This document shows, in pieces, positions 3,736-15,713 of a stretch of DNA of 18,101 nucleotides (the stretch's first letter is position 1; each line of letters begins with the position of its first letter). The position numbers and the translations under genes were made by a program. The DNA is from Opitutales bacterium (GTDB lineage: Bacteria; Verrucomicrobiota; Verrucomicrobiia; Opitutales; UBA9783): the NCBI GenBank assembly GCA_024407725.1, contig JAKSVZ010000015.1, forward strand, positions 1 through 18,101, written 5' to 3'. The notes beneath the pieces are model-generated. The model had not been told where the DNA came from. It made no database searches and was given only the letters and a program-made list of their open reading frames with translations.

Positions 3736-5112
3736 TTATTTTTTCTTCATCCAATAAAGGGTACGCAGGCTTCCAGGAATAGCTTGCTTTGCCTCAATAG
3801 AAAAGAAGGATTCGAATGAACGTTCGAAGTGTTCCTGCGTGTATTCATCAAAAACATCCTTACGGTTGAGCAACATTTCTTGGATTTTGCTGTCTTCTTT
3901 CGGGATAAATTCAATGATGATGGCATTGAACAGATCGGCGAAATAGGAAGCCAATGCTCCAAAAGGAACGTTGTTTCCGATGGCCAAATGATGGATAAGC
4001 GCCAAGATAAGTCCGCAGTCGGCAGGACCGCGTTGATGCAACGCCAAACGTTCTTGATTAGCCCAACCGATTCCGCCGCTAGGATTGGTTAAATCGAGCT
4101 GTAACGGCAATAAGTTGGTTTCTTGCGTTTTTTTGATGGTTAGGTAATTTTTCTCAACCGCCAGTGGGTCGATATCAAAGGCAACCGTTGGAATACCCTT
4201 GGTGCTCGCCAATCGACTGAAATTTCCATTGTTGGCTCCTAAATCCCAGACGGTTTTAGGGTTGATGGTTTGCAAGAATTGGTCTACCAATTTGGTCTTT
4301 TCGTCAAAGCTGTGTTCGTTGTAATTCGTTGTGGCGTAGTAATTGCCCCACTCGGTAGGTGCTTTCTTAGGTTTGATACCCCCAATGGCCATTTGCAAAG
4401 CATCCATCAACTTGAGCATTTTTTCTTTCGGTAGCGTGCGTTGAACCTTTTTACGGTGCGCGGAATATTTTTGCGTCGCACTGTAGGGAAGCTTAACGTA
4501 CAGCCAATAATTGAGCGACAGCCATTTGCGGTTGGGCAACAGCGTATAAATAACATCCTCAGGAATACCATCAATCCACAGCCGTAACAGTTGATTCGCG
4601 CGCAAATCAACCATCTGCATGAGCATGAGCGGATACAGGAAATGGCGTAAGAATTGACCAAACGCAATCCATGGGTTGGGCTCAAACCGTTCAAACGATA
4701 GGGTGTCAATAAAGATCGGTTTTCCGTTTACAAATTGAATGTTGTACGCACTGGCGTCTTTTAATGAAAAGCCCCATTCCACCAACTGCTTTTGGAGGGC
4801 TAAGGTATGAAGGGCTGCGTCTTTCAATTGACTAAACGACCATTCGTAGGGATATGAGATGAAAGGGATTTTTTCTGCCTCTAAATCAATATGATCCTCG
4901 CCGTAATAAACTTCTTTGTGCGGAACCAGAAAGCCTTGTTCAATGAGCTTATCATAAACCCGTTCAGCTTTAAGCGCATCATAAGTTTCTTTGTAACAAG
5001 GGTTGATGCGTCGGTAAATGCGTCCGTTGGCGCTAAATACGAATCCACTAGGATCGCGAAAAGATCCGGTATTTTGTTGTTCATTCATGCTTGAGGAACT
5101 CATATCAGCCAT
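3736..5112 (-). CDS. Class I SAM-dependent methyltransferase with a large N-terminal domain of unknown function; substrate unknown
   Basis: 458-aa ORF. The C-terminal half has Rossmann methyltransferase motif I (VWDLGANNGNFSRLA), followed by the acidic post-I motif VAFDID. The N-terminal region of about 270 aa (FRDPSGFVF..., YPYEWSF) has no motif I can assign. The gene converges on the helicase gene with a 3-nt gap. Confidence 0.7.
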   Translation of the reverse strand: MADMSSSSMNEQQNTGSFRDPSGFVFSANGRIYRRINPCYKETYDALKAERVYDKLIEQGFLVPHKEVYYGEDHIDLEAEKIPFISYPYEWSFSQLKDAALHTLALQKQLVEWGFSLKDASAYNIQFVNGKPIFIDTLSFERFEPNPWIAFGQFLRHFLYPLMLMQMVDLRANQLLRLWIDGIPEDVIYTLLPNRKWLSLNYWLYVKLPYSATQKYSAHRKKVQRTLPKEKMLKLMDALQMAIGGIKPKKAPTEWGNYYATTNYNEHSFDEKTKLVDQFLQTINPKTVWDLGANNGNFSRLASTKGIPTVAFDIDPLAVEKNYLTIKKTQETNLLPLQLDLTNPSGGIGWANQERLALHQRGPADCGLILALIHHLAIGNNVPFGALASYFADLFNAIIIEFIPKEDSKIQEMLLNRKDVFDEYTQEHFERSFESFFSIEAKQAIPGSLRTLYWMKKK

Positions 5113-5170
5113 TAAAATTATTTAAACAGCGACGGCAACGTTTAAATGCCCTGATGAGGTTGAATTTCAA

Positions 5171-6592: not shown

Positions 6593-6605
6593 AAAAGTAT
6601 TTGAG

Positions 6606-6688
6606 GGGGAAATTTAGCATTGTAGCAGTGGGGTTGAACCTATCAGGTTGGCAACCCAACGCATTAGCACCTATTAATTTCCCCTTTT
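6606..6688 (+). terminator. Long compound hairpin followed by a T-run; candidate fbaB terminator or structured element at the islet border
   Basis: The outer 9-bp stem pairs GGGGAAATT (6606-6614) with AATTTCCCC (6676-6684), followed by TTTT (6685-8). Nested inside are GGGTTG (6631-6) paired with CAACCC (6652-7), and AACCT-atc-AGGTT (6637-6649). Confidence 0.4.
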
Positions 6689-6773
6689 GAAAAAGTCACA
6701 CATCGCCTAAAAACCCTTAGGTGTTGATTTGTATCGATTTTTTCGACGGAACCAAATGATTGTTATGCCTCCG

Positions 6774-7388
6774 TTATTTAATAATGCTCTTTAAAAATTC
6801 TTTGGTTAAGTCTTTGGATGAAATAACTCTAGGGTTTGTGTTTAAATAAGGATTGGTGTTAATAACCTTAACTGTTTTATGATTGGATAATGCAAATTCC
6901 GTTTCTCTTGTTGAACTAGTAAATTTTTCAACTAGTAAGGCACTAATTACTTTTTGCTCGTAAGGTATCCAAAGATTTTGGTCACCCTATTTAAGGGTTA
7001 ATTTATCTTCAATGCCTTCTGTTGCTTTGTTTTTGTTTGAAACAACAGAAGCAGACTTTTTTATAATCAAATTTTTCAATAAGATGAAATCACAGGCAAC
7101 ATCTGCCATGATAAACCAAGCGGTGAGATTGGTAGGATCAATTAAATTGATAAGAATAATAAAATTATAAAATCTTTTTTGTTTCCCCTTAACAAAACCA
7201 GAACTAATTAAATAGTTTTTGACACGATCATAATCATGCAAGTGTAAATCCTTGGCTTCCTGAATCTTTTTTTGGAAATTAGTTAATTGATTGTTCGATA
7301 ATTTAAGCTGTACTATTGCTTTTAAAATGCTGTAAAAAAGCGAATTTGATTCGTAATCTGCGGTATCGATAGGGGATTGATCTTCCAT
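6774..7388 (-). pseudogene. 204-codon ORF interrupted by one in-frame TAG; candidate decayed restriction endonuclease partner of the adjacent C5 methyltransferase
   Basis: Track ORF 6987..7388 (133 aa) ends at a TAG (6987-6989). My translation of the next 70 codons in the same frame is open (GDQNLWIPYEQKVISALLVEKFTSSTRETEFALSNHKTVKVINTNPYLNTNPRVISSKDLTKEFLKSIIK) and runs to a TAA at 6774-6776. The gene is very A+T-rich, on the same strand as the methyltransferase and immediately downstream of it. Confidence 0.55.
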
Positions 7389-7463
7389 AGATACATTTTC
7401 TTAAATGGTATTTGCAGTTAGAGCAATGTTAACCACGTTTGGCACTATTGCCTATGTATGAAA

Positions 7464-8402
7464 TCAATCAATTTCTCCGCCCGTTTTTAAAGCGTCAATT
7501 AGATTATTAGCGACTGCCTCTATCATTTTTGTAGGAACTGAATTCCCAAATTGTTTATAGCATTGTACGTCGCTAACGACTAATTTAAAGTCATCGCCAA
7601 AACCTTGTAATCTTGCGGCTTCACGAGGAGTAAGTTTTCTAGGATTTCTATCTTGTTGTTCTACGAGTATTTCAGACCCATCTTTATAATATCGGGCTGA
7701 GATCGTGCTCGTATAAACGGAATGTTCATTAAATAAGCTGTACCCAAAACCATTTCCTTTAGCTTTGTGTTGCTCTTTTCTCCTTCGAAGGCTTGCCCAA
7801 ATCCTATCAGAAATCGTGTATTTAGGGTCAACATTGTTTTCTAATATATCTCCTAATTTTGTAGGAATGCCTGTTGGTTTAGGAAATTCAAATTCAATAT
7901 GATGATTCTTAAAGCCTACTAAAATAATTCTTTCTCTATTTTGAGGAACACCGAAATCTTTTGCGTTTAATACTTGATAATGTAATTGATATCCTAATTT
8001 ATTTTCGAGGATAGTTTTCATAACCTTAAAGGTATTACCTTTATCGTGGCTTAATAAACCTTTTACGTTTTCAAGCATAAAAGCTTTTGGTTTGTGATAT
8101 TCTAGGATTCTTTCTATCTCGAAAAACATCGTTCCTCGGGTGTCATTAAACCCTTTTCTTTTGCCAGCGATAGAAAACGCTTGGCAAGGAAAGCCGGCTA
8201 ATAGGATATCAAAGCTAGGGATGTCTTTTGCATCGATTTGTGTTATATCCCCACTAGGGATTTCTCCCCAGTTAGCCTTGTAAGTTTGAATGGCAAATTT
8301 ATCTATTTCAGAAGAAAAGACGCAGGTGCCTCCAAGTTTTTGATAAGGACGTCTAATGCCCCCAATACCAGCAAAAAGATCGATAAATTTAAACTTTGCC
8401 AT
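7464..8402 (-). CDS. DNA (cytosine-5)-methyltransferase, apparently intact
   Basis: All the conserved C5-methyltransferase motifs I looked for are present: I DLFAGIGG, IV GFPCQAFS, VI MLENVKG, VIII VPQNRERI, X QFGNSVP. The TRD contains KGNGFGY...SARYYKDGSEILV, which reminds me of CCGG-type (HpaII/MspI-like) methylases. I cannot verify that specificity. Confidence 0.92.
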   Translation of the reverse strand: MAKFKFIDLFAGIGGIRRPYQKLGGTCVFSSEIDKFAIQTYKANWGEIPSGDITQIDAKDIPSFDILLAGFPCQAFSIAGKRKGFNDTRGTMFFEIERILEYHKPKAFMLENVKGLLSHDKGNTFKVMKTILENKLGYQLHYQVLNAKDFGVPQNRERIILVGFKNHHIEFEFPKPTGIPTKLGDILENNVDPKYTISDRIWASLRRRKEQHKAKGNGFGYSLFNEHSVYTSTISARYYKDGSEILVEQQDRNPRKLTPREAARLQGFGDDFKLVVSDVQCYKQFGNSVPTKMIEAVANNLIDALKTGGEID

Positions 8403-8537
8403 TTTTTAATATTTAATCTGTTAAACAATGTTTAAAAGTTAATTTTCTTAATGATTTAAATAATTCCACCAAAACGCAAAAACTAGTTTGTAAGAAGTAT
8501 AGCTCTGCGGGAATTTTTTATCACTAAACGAACCTAG

Positions 8538-8613
8538 TGGCAGGGAAAGTGGGATTCGAACCCACGACCTTCGGTTTAGAAAACCGTTGCTCTATCCACT
8601 GAGCTATTTCCCC
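8538..8613 (-). tRNA. tRNA-Arg (anticodon UCU), CCA encoded
   Basis: Hand-folded cloverleaf from the reverse complement: GGGGAAA-TA-GCTC-AGTGGATA-GAGC-A-ACGGT-TTTCTAA-ACCGA-AGGTC-GTGGG-TTCGAAT-CCCAC-TTTCCCT-G-CCA. It has a G1-U72 wobble and one 27-43 mismatch. Confidence 0.85.
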
Positions 8614-11621: not shown

Positions 11622-11661
11622 TTTTTTAGGGTTAAGGCGCTTGTCGGGTATACATAACGCT

Positions 11662-12966
11662 TTATTTGCCACCCTTCTTTCGATTGCAATTCCGGCAGAG
11701 CATTTGTAGGTTGTCGTAGGTTGTGCGTCCGCCCTTGCAAACAGGCTTTATGTGATCGCCTTCCATTTCATTAAAGGCAAACTCTTCGTGGCAATACGCG
11801 CATTTATGCTTTTGTTCTTTATACTTCCTCAGTTTGTCTTCTTGCTTAAAAGCACGAATTGTTAGGAGAGCCCCTGCTGCCTTAATATCATCCTCGTATT
11901 CATCCTGAGTGAGTTTGTTGTTTTTTAGTAGCTCGTCCAATCTGTACTTCTCCAAAAGATACTTATAGGCTTTTTTATCCTTAACCTCATTGCCATTGTC
12001 TTCTTTTAGATTGTTCCAAAGCTCTTCTAGGTCTTTTCTAACCTGTTTGGAGTCTAGCTTAGGAAGGTTATCTTTGTAGTCATTATAATATAGACCCCAT
12101 GGAAGACCTTTGGTAAGGTTTTGTTCGGCATCCTCTATGTCTATGACCCCAAAAATGGATCGTGCCCAATTTGCAACATTCTCAAAATACTGAATTAATT
12201 CATGAGCGTCTGCATCTTTTTGATGATCGTGCATATACTGTACTATTCTAGCATCAGCTTGCTCATTTTCTTGATATTTTTTGGCGCTTATCCAACCCAA
12301 TACCGTTTCTAAGTAATCTTGTCTAAGGGGATCTCCTTTTAAATAATATCCTCCTGCTTTATCGGCGGGATTATCTGTTTTTTTGATCGAAAAATAGCTT
12401 TTTGCGCTCGTTAACCACGAACCCGTATAAGAAGCGTTGCGAATTTCTTGCTCGGTCAAGCGTTCTCCTTGAATATTTGCAGTTTTAAACCACTTAATTT
12501 TTTCCTCTGCAGTTCCTTCTAATACATAAATCTGTAATTTATCATAATTCCTGATTTTATTTTGAGTCGTTGGATCTAATCCTGCGAATGACTTGGGGTT
12601 GGTTTTATTGGGGTTCTGTGGATCTTCTGGGATTTCAACAGAAAAATCACTTATATTTCCGTTTGCTGCTTTGCTTCCTATGACATAGGAACAAATAGAT
12701 AACATCCGTTGTTGCCCATCTAATAGTTCGTAAACGCTAGGCTCTTCATCGCTTTTAGCCCAATACATAGTACCAAGTGGTAAATCACCAAGGATAGTAT
12801 AAATGACAGCTTTTTGCTGTTCTAGCTTATAACAAAATTCTCGTTGATACTTCGGGCGGATTATTAATTTACCACCCAAAGCCCTAACCTCATCATTATT
12901 TGGGTCTTGCGTATATCCTTCGACTAAGTTTCTTATTGTAGTATCTTGTTTTAGTGTAGCTTTCAT
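11662..12966 (-). CDS. DUF262 (ParB/Srx-like, GmrSD N-terminal type) domain fused to a C-terminal HNH zinc-finger endonuclease
   Basis: DUF262 hallmarks are present: RPKYQREF near the N-terminus, DGQQR (encoded at 12706-12720) and WFKTANIQGERLTEQEIRNA. The last 48 aa or so form an HNH beta-beta-alpha-Me finger, CAYCHEEF...EGDHIKPVCKGGRTTYDNLQMLCRNCNRKKG (11665-11808). The start ATG overlaps the stop of the upstream methyltransferase (ATGA at 12963-12966). Confidence 0.85.
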   Translation of the reverse strand: MKATLKQDTTIRNLVEGYTQDPNNDEVRALGGKLIIRPKYQREFCYKLEQQKAVIYTILGDLPLGTMYWAKSDEEPSVYELLDGQQRMLSICSYVIGSKAANGNISDFSVEIPEDPQNPNKTNPKSFAGLDPTTQNKIRNYDKLQIYVLEGTAEEKIKWFKTANIQGERLTEQEIRNASYTGSWLTSAKSYFSIKKTDNPADKAGGYYLKGDPLRQDYLETVLGWISAKKYQENEQADARIVQYMHDHQKDADAHELIQYFENVANWARSIFGVIDIEDAEQNLTKGLPWGLYYNDYKDNLPKLDSKQVRKDLEELWNNLKEDNGNEVKDKKAYKYLLEKYRLDELLKNNKLTQDEYEDDIKAAGALLTIRAFKQEDKLRKYKEQKHKCAYCHEEFAFNEMEGDHIKPVCKGGRTTYDNLQMLCRNCNRKKGGK

Positions 12967-13664
12967 ACTTGCTTCTGGATTTGTTTTTTGTGGCGGATAA
13001 GGATACGGGCGTACGGTACAGTTACAATTCCGTCTTTCAGATAGTACAAATCTCCATCGACTGTGCCTCTTTTTTGTATTTCTTTGCGGTATTTTCGATG
13101 TTCGGGTTTATAAGGTTTTACCCCAATCGATAAACCTAAATTGGCGATTCCGAGCCCAATAATCTCGAACTGCTTTGGGCAATACTTTTTCAAAAAGGTA
13201 ATCGGTACGCCCATAACGCCGTCATAGCCGTACGGGATATCCTTTACCTTGCCGACCTCAATGGCGTCGTAATTATCGTACTTGGGGTACTTTTCAGGGG
13301 TATAAACGCAATTTTTGTTTAACCCATGTTCTTTAGTCCGCTTTTTATGGGGTAGGTTCGTGAACCAACAGACCCCTTTGTTTTTGACAAAGCCTTTAGC
13401 GGGATCGTATCCCTTTGAACGCACATATTTTGCGTTTTCCGGAAGAGTGTTTGGATACGCTGTTTTAAAAATCATTGTGCAATTAAACCCTTCCCCAACC
13501 CATAGCTTGTTGTCCTTAATCAGGGGAAAGATCTCTTTATAGGTAATGGCATTTAGATTGCCAATGATGAGGAACTTTTTGTTGTACGCTATGAGTTGAG
13601 CGACATACTCGCGAAACAACGAAAAGGGCGGATTAGTGACCACAATATCTGCTTCCTTTAGCAA
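12963..13664 (-). pseudogene. C-terminal catalytic fragment of an N6-adenine DNA methyltransferase (EcoRI-methylase-like family), separated from its N-terminus by a frameshift
   Basis: It contains catalytic motif IV, VVTNPPF (NPPF encoded at 13623-13634). The track M at 13664 is a TTG. The frame stays open upstream through the repeat (…FDSRERERE-YNQLPYSDLDESFKIPLKGNGDFRSDECIELLKEADIVVTNPPFSLFREY) and back to a TGA near 13850, with no ATG in that stretch. Confidence 0.8.
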
Positions 13665-13726
13665 CTCGATGCATTCGTCGCTACGGAAATCCCCATTACC
13701 TTTGAGGGGGATTTTAAAACTTTCGT

Positions 13727-14062
13727 CTAGATCAGAATAAGGGAGTTGGTTATACTCTCTCTCTCTCTCTCTAGAGTCAAAGCGTAGGACGGCTTGCCGG
13801 TTGGTTCGTAGTGCGTAGCAATGAGCTTTTTTAACCCTAAAGTGGGAAAATCATCCTTAAAATACTTCCAAAAATTGCTTTCATCCGGATCGTCACAATT
13901 TAAAAAGACGGTTTTATCTTTAAAATGCATATGATAATGCTTGAGTTCTTCGTTTATATCATTCATCTGCGTATAGAATTCATCATTCTTGGCATTTTTG
14001 GCTGCTATTAAGGCCGTGTTACGTTTAACATTTGACGTATCGTTATCCATGAAATGACTCAC
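13727..14062 (-). pseudogene. N-terminal fragment of the same N6-adenine DNA methyltransferase, terminated 9 codons after the repeat tract
   Basis: KNDEFYTQMNDINEELKHYHMHFKDKTVFLNCDDPDESNFWKYF...GLKKLIATHYEP matches the N-terminal signature I recall for the EcoRI-methylase-like family. The frame runs into (AG)9 (LERERE), then SITNSLILI and a stop. The start is a GTG at 14062 or an ATG at 14050, only 4-16 nt from the tRNA-His 3' end. Confidence 0.8.
13755..13772. repeat. Perfect dinucleotide simple sequence repeat, (CT)9 on the plus strand and (AG)9 on the coding strand
   Basis: Read directly: ata-ctctctctctctctctct-agag. It lies inside the methyltransferase coding sequence, exactly where the reading frame breaks. 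Confidence 0.97.
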
Positions 14063-14066
14063 TTTA

Positions 14067-14143
14067 TGGGGTGGTAGACCGGGCTTGAACCGGCAACCCT
14101 CGGAACCACAATCCGATGCTCTGCCAATTGAGCTACAACCACC
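14067..14143 (-). tRNA. tRNA-His (anticodon GUG) with the extra 5' G(-1), CCA encoded
   Basis: Reverse complement: G-GTGGTTG-TA-GCTC-AATTGGC-AGAGC-A-TCGGA-TTGTGGT-TCCGA-GGGTT-GCCGG-TTCAAGC-CCGGT-CTACCAC-C-CCA. G(-1) pairs with C73, which is the His hallmark. Confidence 0.9.
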
Positions 14144-14258: not shown

Positions 14259-14334
14259 GGGGTTGTAGCTCAGTTGGTAGAGCGCCACAATGGCATTGTG
14301 GAGGTCGTCGGTTCGATCCCGATCAGCTCCACCA
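14259..14334 (+). tRNA. tRNA-Ala (anticodon GGC), CCA encoded
   Basis: GGGGTTG-TA-GCTC-AGTTGGT-AGAGC-G-CCACA-ATGGCAT-TGTGG-AGGTC-GTCGG-TTCGATC-CCGAT-CAGCTCC-A-CCA. The G3-U70 Ala identity pair is present. Confidence 0.92.
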
Positions 14335-14352: not shown

Positions 14353-14437
14353 GCTGAAGTGGTGGAATTGGCAGACACGCATGATTCAGGTTCATGTGCT
14401 TCACGGCATGGGGGTTCAAGTCCCCCCTCCAGCACCA
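14353..14437 (+). tRNA. tRNA-Leu (anticodon CAG), long variable arm, CCA encoded
   Basis: GCTGAAG-TGGTGGAATTGGCAGACACG-CATGA-TTCAGGT-TCATG-TGCTTCACGGCAT-GGGGG-TTCAAGT-CCCCC-CTCCAGC-A-CCA. This is a class II tRNA of 85 nt. Confidence 0.9.
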
Positions 14438-14486
14438 AAACGAGCGCTGTATCGATGGGTTCACGGATAAAAGGTTAGAGGTGAAA

Positions 14487-15713
14487 ATGATGAAGTACCC
14501 GTGGAAGCGTTTAGGATTCTATGGATTAGCGATGATGGGTGGGGTGTGTGCCGGCTTATCATCCAGCGAATGGCTGTTTACCCTTGCTCATTTTTGCTCG
14601 GAAGCTTTTATTCGTCTGTTTCGCTGCGTAAGCTTACCTATTATTTCGTTGTCGCTGATTGTTGCCCTATCGCGGTATGGAGGGAATCGTTCGCTCAATG
14701 CTGTTTGGAAACGAACCTTGATGTATACGCTTACGACCACGTTGTTGGCGGTTACGGTCAGCGCTATCCTCTATTATCTGATTGCCCCCGAACGGGTTCA
14801 AGTGCTTACGGCTGATACCCCTGTACGAACGTTAGTTGCCGGTAGTTATCTCCAATACCTGCTGCAGATTATTCCCGATAACGCTTTGGGGATTTTTATC
14901 GAGCATCAGGTGTTGGCAGTGTTGGTGCTGAGTTTTATGGTTGGAATGGCGATTCGCGGAATTCCAGACCCACTGGTACGTACCCACATCCAGCGGTTGT
15001 TTGAAGGACTTCACAGCATTTTATCGACGATTATCCGCTACATCATTGCAGGATTACCCCTAGGATTGTTTGGGTTTATCGGCGTGGGTATTCGCGGAAT
15101 GAATGCATCGGTAGCGCTGCAAGGCATGGGCGCTTACTGTTTGGTGATTGTTTTGGCTAATATTCTTCAAGGAACCTTGGTACTGCCTTTGTTTTTGCTG
15201 TGGAAGCATCAAAATCCCTTGCGTGTTTTTAAAAAAATGCTGCCGGCGCTTTCCGTTGCTTTTTTCACCAAATCTTCCGTGGGTACCTTGCCGATTACCT
15301 TGCAGCAGGTAGAGCATAAACTGGGGGTAAAGCCGCAGGTGGGGCAATTCGTATTGCCGTTATGCACAACGATCAACATGAACGGCTGCGGGGCATTCAT
15401 CTTTACCACCGTGTTGTATGTGATGCACAATCAGGGCATTGAAATTACCGCGGGTACCATGCTTGCCTGGATTTTTATTGCCACCTTGGCAGCGATTGGA
15501 AACGCAGGAGTACCGATGGGTTGTTTTTTCTTAAGCGCTAGCCTGCTTTCGTCGATGAACGTTCCTGTGGAATTGATGGGGATGATTTTACCGATTTATA
15601 GCGTAATCGATATGCTAGAAACCGCGTTGAACGTATGGTCCGATTCGTGTGTGACAGTGGCCGTTAATCACGATATGCAGATGAATCCGAACGCTTGTTT
15701 GAACGACCTCTAG
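14487..15713 (+). CDS. Dicarboxylate/amino acid:cation symporter (DAACS family, GltP/GltT/SstT-like)
   Basis: Polytopic membrane protein with the family motif FFTKSSVGTLPIT and the TTINMNGCGAF and NAGVPMG segments. I chose the start at ATG 14487 (MMKYPW...), preceded by GAGGTG. The track start at 14394 lies inside tRNA-Leu. Confidence 0.85.
   Translation: MMKYPWKRLGFYGLAMMGGVCAGLSSSEWLFTLAHFCSEAFIRLFRCVSLPIISLSLIVALSRYGGNRSLNAVWKRTLMYTLTTTLLAVTVSAILYYLIAPERVQVLTADTPVRTLVAGSYLQYLLQIIPDNALGIFIEHQVLAVLVLSFMVGMAIRGIPDPLVRTHIQRLFEGLHSILSTIIRYIIAGLPLGLFGFIGVGIRGMNASVALQGMGAYCLVIVLANILQGTLVLPLFLLWKHQNPLRVFKKMLPALSVAFFTKSSVGTLPITLQQVEHKLGVKPQVGQFVLPLCTTINMNGCGAFIFTTVLYVMHNQGIEITAGTMLAWIFIATLAAIGNAGVPMGCFFLSASLLSSMNVPVELMGMILPIYSVIDMLETALNVWSDSCVTVAVNHDMQMNPNACLNDL

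Follow-up and report, generated by a model that had tools for sequence, protein, structure and literature searches.

A predicted AG-repeat switch in an EcoRI-family DNA methyltransferase gene adjoining a DUF262-HNH nuclease gene in an Opitutales genome

The window, the whole 18,101-base stretch of DNA that was analyzed, comes from a metagenome-assembled genome (MAG) of a member of Opitutales (Verrucomicrobiota). Next to a tRNA-His gene it carries a strain-specific island with two genes on the minus strand, one for a DNA methyltransferase (M) and one for a restriction endonuclease (R). The M gene is frameshifted at a simple sequence repeat (SSR). The features of this locus, in window coordinates, are as follows.

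11628 to 14065, no strand assigned: strain-specific restriction-modification (R-M) island of 2438 bp, in place of which relatives have 90 bp between priA and tRNA-His
11662 to 12966, minus strand: gene R, an intact ORF of 434 aa, with a GmrSD_N domain (DUF262, DGQQR motif) and a canonical HNH domain
12963 to 14050, minus strand: whole M gene, frameshifted at the tract, for an EcoRI-family N6-adenine methyltransferase with motif IV NPPF
12963 to 13754, minus strand: C-terminal part of M, 263 codons and a stop, its frame offset by 2 nt downstream of the tract, with GDFRS, TNPPF, and PYARILIR
13727 to 14050, minus strand: N-terminal ORF of the 9-unit allele, 107 aa and a TAG at 13727 to 13729, with the DEFYT and NCDDP motifs
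13750 to 13752, minus strand: TAA that ends the 7-, 10-, and 13-unit frame immediately after the tract in the in silico series
13755 to 13772, minus strand: perfect (AG)9 tract, (CT)9 on the plus strand, a frame-setting SSR
14067 to 14142, minus strand: tRNA-His(GTG), with its 3' end 16 nt upstream of the ATG of M, marking the insertion point

The island is missing from two contigs of related genomes, which share about 91% nucleotide identity with the window and carry 90 bp at this place, indicating that the M-R pair is a recently gained 2.4-kb island. The surrounding gene order (aldolase, a 160-aa ORF, priA, SDF transporter, lysS) is kept in both relatives. The G+C content of the island is about 0.37 to 0.41, compared to 0.46 to 0.50 in the flanks. 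The M-R cassette is a recent horizontal acquisition. A search for direct repeats that would flank the island as integration scars returned none that were convincing. The cassette might be transcribed by read-through from the tRNA-His gene. A scan of the minus strand upstream of M detected no sigma-70-like promoter, the counts being no higher than in shuffled sequences, and such a scan is uninformative for Verrucomicrobiota.

A contig in the Logan collection (L001, from run SRR17543914) is identical to the window over 5276 bases, the (AG)9 tract included, and possibly represents the same population. This run is part of a study of horse-faeces metagenomes (PRJNA438436; PMC9529974), suggesting that the organism is host associated.

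The preliminary description of this DNA placed an (AG)9 tract at positions 13755 to 13772. This proved exact, both on reading the sequence and in Tandem Repeats Finder (period 2, 9.0 copies, 100% matches). On the minus strand, the surroundings of the tract read ...TTGACTCT(AG)9TATAACC... (with longer context, ...GCTTTGACTCT(AG)9TATAACCAAC...). When in frame, the tract encodes ...L-E-R-E-R-E.... It is also, as had been proposed, the only SSR in the window: a scan of all 18,101 bases found no other dinucleotide repeat of at least 5 units and no homopolymer longer than 7. The tract is far beyond chance expectation. In 200 dinucleotide-preserving shuffles, matches to an (AG)6 pattern (12 nt, one mismatch allowed) averaged 0.01, and the four overlapping matches of the real sequence were reached in none of the 200. 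The locus shares with SSR contingency loci a perfect, slip-prone repeat inside an ORF.

The two reading frames that meet at the tract were described earlier as an N-terminal frame that stops 9 codons past it, at the TAG at 13727 to 13729, and a second frame that stays open; translation bears out both. From the ATG at 14050, the N-terminal frame reads MDNDTSNVKRN...KPSYALTLERERESITNSLILI up to its stop. Across the tract, it reads ...SYALTLERERESITNSLILI and then the stop, the TAG coming nine codons after the serine codon AGT. The C-terminal frame is open through the tract, as ...REREREYNQLPYSDLDESFKIPLKGNGDFRSDECIELLKEADIVVTNPPF..., and continues to the stop at 12963 to 12965. A database protein of 226 aa (P0001) is a gene call whose start lies within this C-terminal part.

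The M gene was rebuilt in silico with 5 to 14 AG units. Alleles of 5, 8, 11, and 14 units give a single ORF of 359, 361, 363, and 365 aa, respectively. Those of 6, 9, and 12 units run into a stop after ...ITNSLILI, nine codons past the tract, and those of 7, 10, and 13 units stop immediately, at GTA TAA. The earlier claims of an immediate stop at 10 units and of one repeat-length class in three being ON hold in this series. The gene is also ON at 8 or 11 units, as claimed, but the length of about 365 aa given for the product has to be corrected to 361 aa (8 units) or 363 aa (11 units). In silico, the repeat count decides whether the product is full length or truncated, and no other lesion is involved.

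The protein encoded by the 8-unit allele matches the EcoRI_methylase profile (Pfam ID PF13651) over positions 2 to 345 of 345, with 408 bits (cut-off 26.4) and an E value of 5e-122, and the PADLOC MTase_II model (PDLC03297), which is a Type II model, with an E value of 2.7e-107. Motif IV, TNPPF, is found at residues 138 to 142; DEFYT, NCDDP, and GDFRS are also present, and all of these motifs are invariant in the alignment. With a full-length profile match, motif IV, and the N-terminal motifs, the joined protein is a member of the EcoRI_methylase family. NCBIfam has no model that matches M, and a sequence search of the PDB returned no match to it.

An alignment of 92 full-length homologues, taken from the retrieved loci, has 104 columns with a conservation of 90% or more. 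The joined M retains 102 of these, with C50L and N67D as the only exceptions; L50 is also present in the related proteins P0180 and P0184. The homologues are about 340 to 380 aa long, and each of the 92 is a single ORF across the point where the tract lies in the window. The preliminary description had named two observations that would speak against a switch, namely, additional disabling mutations elsewhere in the gene and homologues that are naturally split at this point. Neither was found, since the Pfam match runs from end to end, the conserved columns are kept, and the homologues are unsplit. By these comparisons, the tract is the sole lesion in the M gene.

The same homologues bear on the suggestion that the 9-unit mRNA yields the full enzyme constitutively and at a low level, through programmed -1 ribosomal frameshifting or transcriptional slippage. 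A shift of -1 (or +2) inside the tract or just past it would indeed join the two frames. However, none of the 92 full-length homologues needs a frameshift, the GAGAGAG sequence offers no X XXY YYZ slippery heptamer, and the OFF frame extends for only 9 codons. To our knowledge, transcriptional slippage is confined to homopolymers and does not occur on dinucleotide runs. Such recoding is therefore extremely unlikely.

The tract is located between the conserved blocks LGLKKLIATxY and LKGxGDFRS, in the most length-variable stretch of the family. This linker comprises 27 to 73 residues in the homologues and 40 in the window M. At the residues encoded by the tract, the frequency of the most common amino acid per column is 0.3 to 0.6. 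Residues 88 to 94 form a strand, residues 95 to 111 a low-confidence loop, and residues 112 to 115 the next strand in an AlphaFold2 model whose quality is moderate (mean pLDDT 68.6). This places the tract at the end of a strand and the start of the low-confidence loop. Gain or loss of Glu-Arg pairs in this linker should be tolerated.

The R gene begins within the end of M, as the stop codon of M and the ATG of R overlap in ATGA (12963 to 12966). In Pfam searches, R contains only the GmrSD_N (DUF262) and HNH (PF01844) domains. It matches the PADLOC model REase_II (PDLC03418), a Type II restriction enzyme model, with an E value of 1e-72. NCBIfam gives only weak HNH matches, and a sequence search of the PDB returns only generic HNH matches. 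R differs from its family at 14 of 99 conserved columns. Decay of R was considered and rejected, as the canonical CxxC...DH...NLQxLCxxCN signature of the HNH domain (NLQMLCRNCN in R) and the DGQQR motif are kept; the 14 departures seem to reflect a divergent lineage.

The presence of separate, adjacent, and co-oriented M and R genes is typical of Type II R-M systems. R has neither the SF2 helicase nor the PD-(D/E)XK nuclease of a Type III Res subunit, and its C-terminal domain is PF01844 HNH, not the DUF1524 that is fused to DUF262 in the GmrSD/BrxU Type IV enzymes. The window M is neither an orphan methyltransferase nor a Type III mod gene. The start of R has no strong Shine-Dalgarno sequence of its own, and the stop of the 9-unit allele falls 760 nt upstream of it.

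A survey of homologous loci shows that an R homologue is found directly downstream of the M homologue, on the same strand, in 144 of 160 loci. In most of these 144, the two genes overlap by 4, 11, or 1 nt or are separated by a gap of 1 to 5 nt. The M-R pair spans many phyla, including Patescibacteria and archaeal MAGs (L002 to L164), and is also found on plasmids of cultured bacteria, such as Variovorax, Macrococcoides, Enterococcus, Lactiplantibacillus, and others (H1 to H40). Its retention in so many loci and its presence on plasmids indicate that the combination of an EcoRI-family methyltransferase with a DUF262-HNH nuclease is a widespread mobile R-M module. Records name the nuclease only "DUF262 domain-containing protein," though a Type II REase model that covers it exists in PADLOC. 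The pair in the window has the same gene order and tight coupling as other such modules (PDLC03297 with PDLC03418), and its M and R show 35 to 66% identity to any family member.

Long SSRs are rare in this family, being found in about 4 of about 165 homologues, which suggests that switching is sporadic and not typical of the family; nearly all M-R modules have no SSR. The tracts found are as follows, in the coordinates of each contig.

L078, 318 to 329: (AG)6 in the linker that matches that of the window tract, in frame
L165, 4258 to 4269: G12 in the linker that matches that of the window tract, frameshifted; G11 or G14 would be ON
L165, 5087 to 5114: (AG)14 or more in the C-terminal region; the contig breaks inside the tract
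L149, 2415 to 2456: (GA)21 before the C-terminal motif, with the conserved ending in another frame
L040, 6939 to 6948: G10 at the corresponding C-terminal place, in frame

Tracts of at least 6 AG or GA units occur twice in 161 kb of M genes and not at all in 149 kb of R genes or 863 kb of flanking DNA. As the AG/GA repeats of the family are found in M only, it is questionable whether R acts independently of M. The overall enrichment of SSRs in the homologous M genes relative to the flanks was not significant (6 versus 27 tracts, p = 0.42), nor was that of G/C homopolymer and dinucleotide tracts (p = 0.20). We read the occurrence of differing repeat units at a shared linker, ON in some and OFF in other unrelated lineages, as a sign of repeated selection for switchability. 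The linker repeats of the distant homologues L078 and L165 lend independent, if indirect, support to a switch in the window M.

Several of these homologues show further peculiarities. In L165 (Logan run SRR33454342), positions 4001 to 5114 encode P0180, an M homologue that is split by the G12 tract. In L040, a Muribaculaceae MAG, the alternative frame past the G10 tract also ends in the conserved motif (...PYFRILIRRCQ and a stop). L149 encodes a homologous methyltransferase at positions 1456 to 2862 (JGI Ga0310695_10028360), and the three frames that follow its tract differ in outcome. One gives the short, family-typical ending (...PYFRIVVRRMPQV and a stop), another stops immediately, and the third reads through into a second copy of the C-terminal module, for a protein of 468 aa that ends in YRRILIKRK. 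A third copy of this module is found in the ORF at positions 2481 to 2672, making the L149 tract a possible three-way switch of the C terminus.

In the window, the (AG)9 tract is probably a slipped-strand ON/OFF contingency switch in the methyltransferase gene of a Type II-like R-M cassette, caught in the OFF state. Replication slippage would add or remove AG units, presumably at a useful rate. Alleles of 3n+2 units (5, 8, 11, or 14) would produce the whole enzyme, the Glu/Arg stretch in its variable surface linker differing slightly in length, and at every other length translation would end within nine codons of the tract. The assembled 9-unit allele would be OFF, and the loss of one AG would turn it ON.

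The premature stop probably uncouples R from M and lowers the expression of R, through loss of translational coupling and polarity. With the R start overlapping the stop of M, the whole cassette might thus be silent together. If R were expressed independently of M, an OFF state of M should be lethal. Two assemblies have the OFF allele next to an intact R as their consensus, so OFF cells are viable. Both this consensus and the confinement of repeats to M fit with R being silent, or dependent on M, when M is OFF. The likely benefit would be population-level variation in the restriction barrier, and hence in the methylation pattern, of a gut commensal.

A second allele of M was sought by several routes. 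A set of 5.8 billion protein clusters, queried with the joined protein as well as with the N-terminal ORF, yielded none, and neither did the GTDB species representatives or the JGI metagenomes, where the best identity was 60%. Apart from its own C-terminal gene call, the best database match of the joined M is 66% identical. The N-terminal ORF as a query retrieved no near-identical fragment from the protein clusters. When the C-terminal gene call and R were looked up as exact sequences, a single identical contig, the Logan one, emerged. The only tract length on record is 9 units, in the MAG contig and in this identical contig, which possibly comes from the same population. The N-terminal ORF was found in no NCBI protein record, and for the C-terminal piece the only entry is a Logan gene call; the neighboring genes do have NCBI records. 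When short N-terminal database fragments were scanned for repeat-encoded peptide tails, only P0180 stood out, with its truncation at the G12 tract. Judged by their peptide tails, the remaining truncated fragments look like contig ends or ordinary frameshifts.

The records of the tract also bear on the idea that 9 units is an assembly or sequencing error and that the true tract has 8 (or 11) units, with the gene ON. The source is a MAG, and repeats are error prone in PCR-based libraries. However, the NCBI MAG and the Logan contig, although not fully independent and possibly built from the same reads, agree over the entire region that they share, and a tract of 18 bp fits well inside a short read. 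A miscount is thus very unlikely, and even if there were one, the tract would still be a switch, caught ON.

The search for alleles also bears on plain decay. On this view, a single slip, in a tract present by accident, disabled the recently acquired cassette; the allele of 9 units has become practically fixed, and M is a young pseudogene without adaptive switching. No second allele is seen in the searched databases, the N-terminal ORF has no protein record of the kind that its neighbors have, and SSRs are not significantly denser in the family than in its flanks. The recent arrival of the island, missing from relatives at 91% identity, has left little time for further lesions and makes a fresh inactivating slip plausible as well. 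On the other hand, a perfect 18-bp dinucleotide run does not come from chance and is mutable regardless of purpose, and it is the only lesion. An intact R is hard to square with a permanently dead M unless R is silent too. The unrelated repeats at the same linker of distant homologues, ON in some and OFF in others, likewise point to selection for switchability. We consider decay rather unlikely and retain the contingency switch as the preferred reading.

Among known systems, the closest parallel to the window M is mmyCImod, a Type III mod gene of Mycoplasma mycoides subsp. capri, whose AG tract starts at nt 320 (PMC3498834). In that gene, (AG)10 gives the ON state, whereas (AG)12, which has a TAA directly behind it, gives OFF; mod overlaps res, and two clones have been isolated that differ in tract length and activity (PMC3498834). 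In both systems, an AG tract lies about 300 nt into an N6-adenine methyltransferase gene (nt 279 in the window), stops are close by in both wrong frames, and the methyltransferase gene precedes the nuclease gene and overlaps it. However, mmyCImod belongs to a Type III system, with a Res helicase-nuclease that needs Mod, whereas the window R has the DUF262 and HNH domains and M belongs to PF13651 (Type II in PADLOC). Moreover, two tract lengths are known for mmyCImod and a single allele for the window M.

A Type II methyltransferase ORF with AG repeats is also found in Helicobacter pylori, where hpyAVIBM codes for a C5-cytosine methyltransferase and contains 4 to 5 AG units (PMC3411764). The repeat number varies among strains, giving both frameshifted and in-frame alleles (PMC3411764). 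That enzyme belongs to another family, whereas the window tract, about twice as long, is in the gene of an m6A enzyme that adjoins an intact nuclease gene. The DUF262 domain of R is shared with GmrSD/BrxU enzymes, whose nuclease domain is DUF1524 and which attack modified DNA on their own (PMC12707154). R differs from these in having an HNH domain and a methyltransferase partner.

The preliminary description likened the tract to the basis of phasevarions. The methyltransferases just described are precedents for the AG repeat unit, but the phasevarion analogy goes beyond the evidence in that M is part of an R-M pair with an intact R. Surveys of phase-variable methyltransferases cover Type III mod and Type I hsd genes, and phasevarion hosts include Haemophilus, Neisseria, Moraxella, Streptococcus suis, and Actinobacillus (PMC5909438, PMC7383803). 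A 2026 review finds only "limited representation" of phase variation in Type II systems (PMC13076061). With phasevarions, the window locus shares SSR-based ON/OFF control of a DNA methyltransferase in a host-associated bacterium, the window switch being a prediction from sequence. Phasevarions, however, are defined by demonstrated genome-wide changes in expression. They also mostly involve Type III or Type I systems with tetra- or pentanucleotide or homopolymer repeats, whereas the window M is Type II-like and contains AG repeats. A gene-regulatory role for the window M is possible but unsupported.

What is new here is a candidate SSR-controlled methyltransferase in an EcoRI-family/DUF262-HNH cassette of a horse-gut member of Opitutales; the type of mechanism is already known. 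As this mechanism is a textbook one, the gain is in scope and not in principle. So far, phase-variable methyltransferases are well known from pathogens with small genomes, and nearly all of the work concerns Type I and Type III systems. The candidate, from an uncultured gut member of Verrucomicrobiota, would extend them to commensals, to the EcoRI-methylase family, and to the DUF262-HNH type of nuclease. Genes frameshifted by repeats get annotated as pseudogenes in MAGs, so that they are missing from lists of R-M systems and from predicted methylomes of gut communities. A switch in M next to an intact R also raises the question of how self-restriction is avoided.

A broader and distinctly doubtful reading is that the M-R modules form a cross-phylum family with Type III-like logic, in which mutable repeats at two hot spots serve a wider switching strategy. 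One of these permissive hot spots may be the linker that follows the ATHY motif, and the other the region ahead of the C-terminal PYxRILIRR motif. The nuclease would need the methyltransferase for its expression or targeting, which would explain why repeats are found only in M. The dinucleotide tract of L149 may then pick among three C-terminal modules in three frames, which, if true, would be a case of specificity switching by frameshift, beyond simple ON/OFF control. The (AG)9 tract of the window would be one case of a strategy used by gut commensals, Verrucomicrobiota included. Our searches returned no description of such a wider strategy.

Some other parts of the window also deserve mention. 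A second strain-specific island, at positions 6596 to 8537, has a G+C content of about 0.33 and, like the M-R island, is missing from the relatives at 91% identity. Next to it is tRNA-Arg(TCT), at 8538 to 8613. The island contains the genes for a C5 cytosine methyltransferase (7464 to 8402, minus strand) and a 133-aa ORF (6987 to 7388, minus strand). The latter has no match in Pfam, NCBIfam, or PADLOC. This island is possibly another R-M cassette, with an unrecognized nuclease. The mechanically called ORF at 14394 to 15713, for a sodium:dicarboxylate symporter, begins inside tRNA-Leu (14353 to 14437). Its true start is farther downstream, because the product in the relatives has 408 aa. Finally, a 23-nt inverted repeat (14118 to 14140 and 14261 to 14283, 91% complementary), located between the divergent tRNA-His and tRNA-Ala genes, simply reflects a shared tRNA arm sequence.
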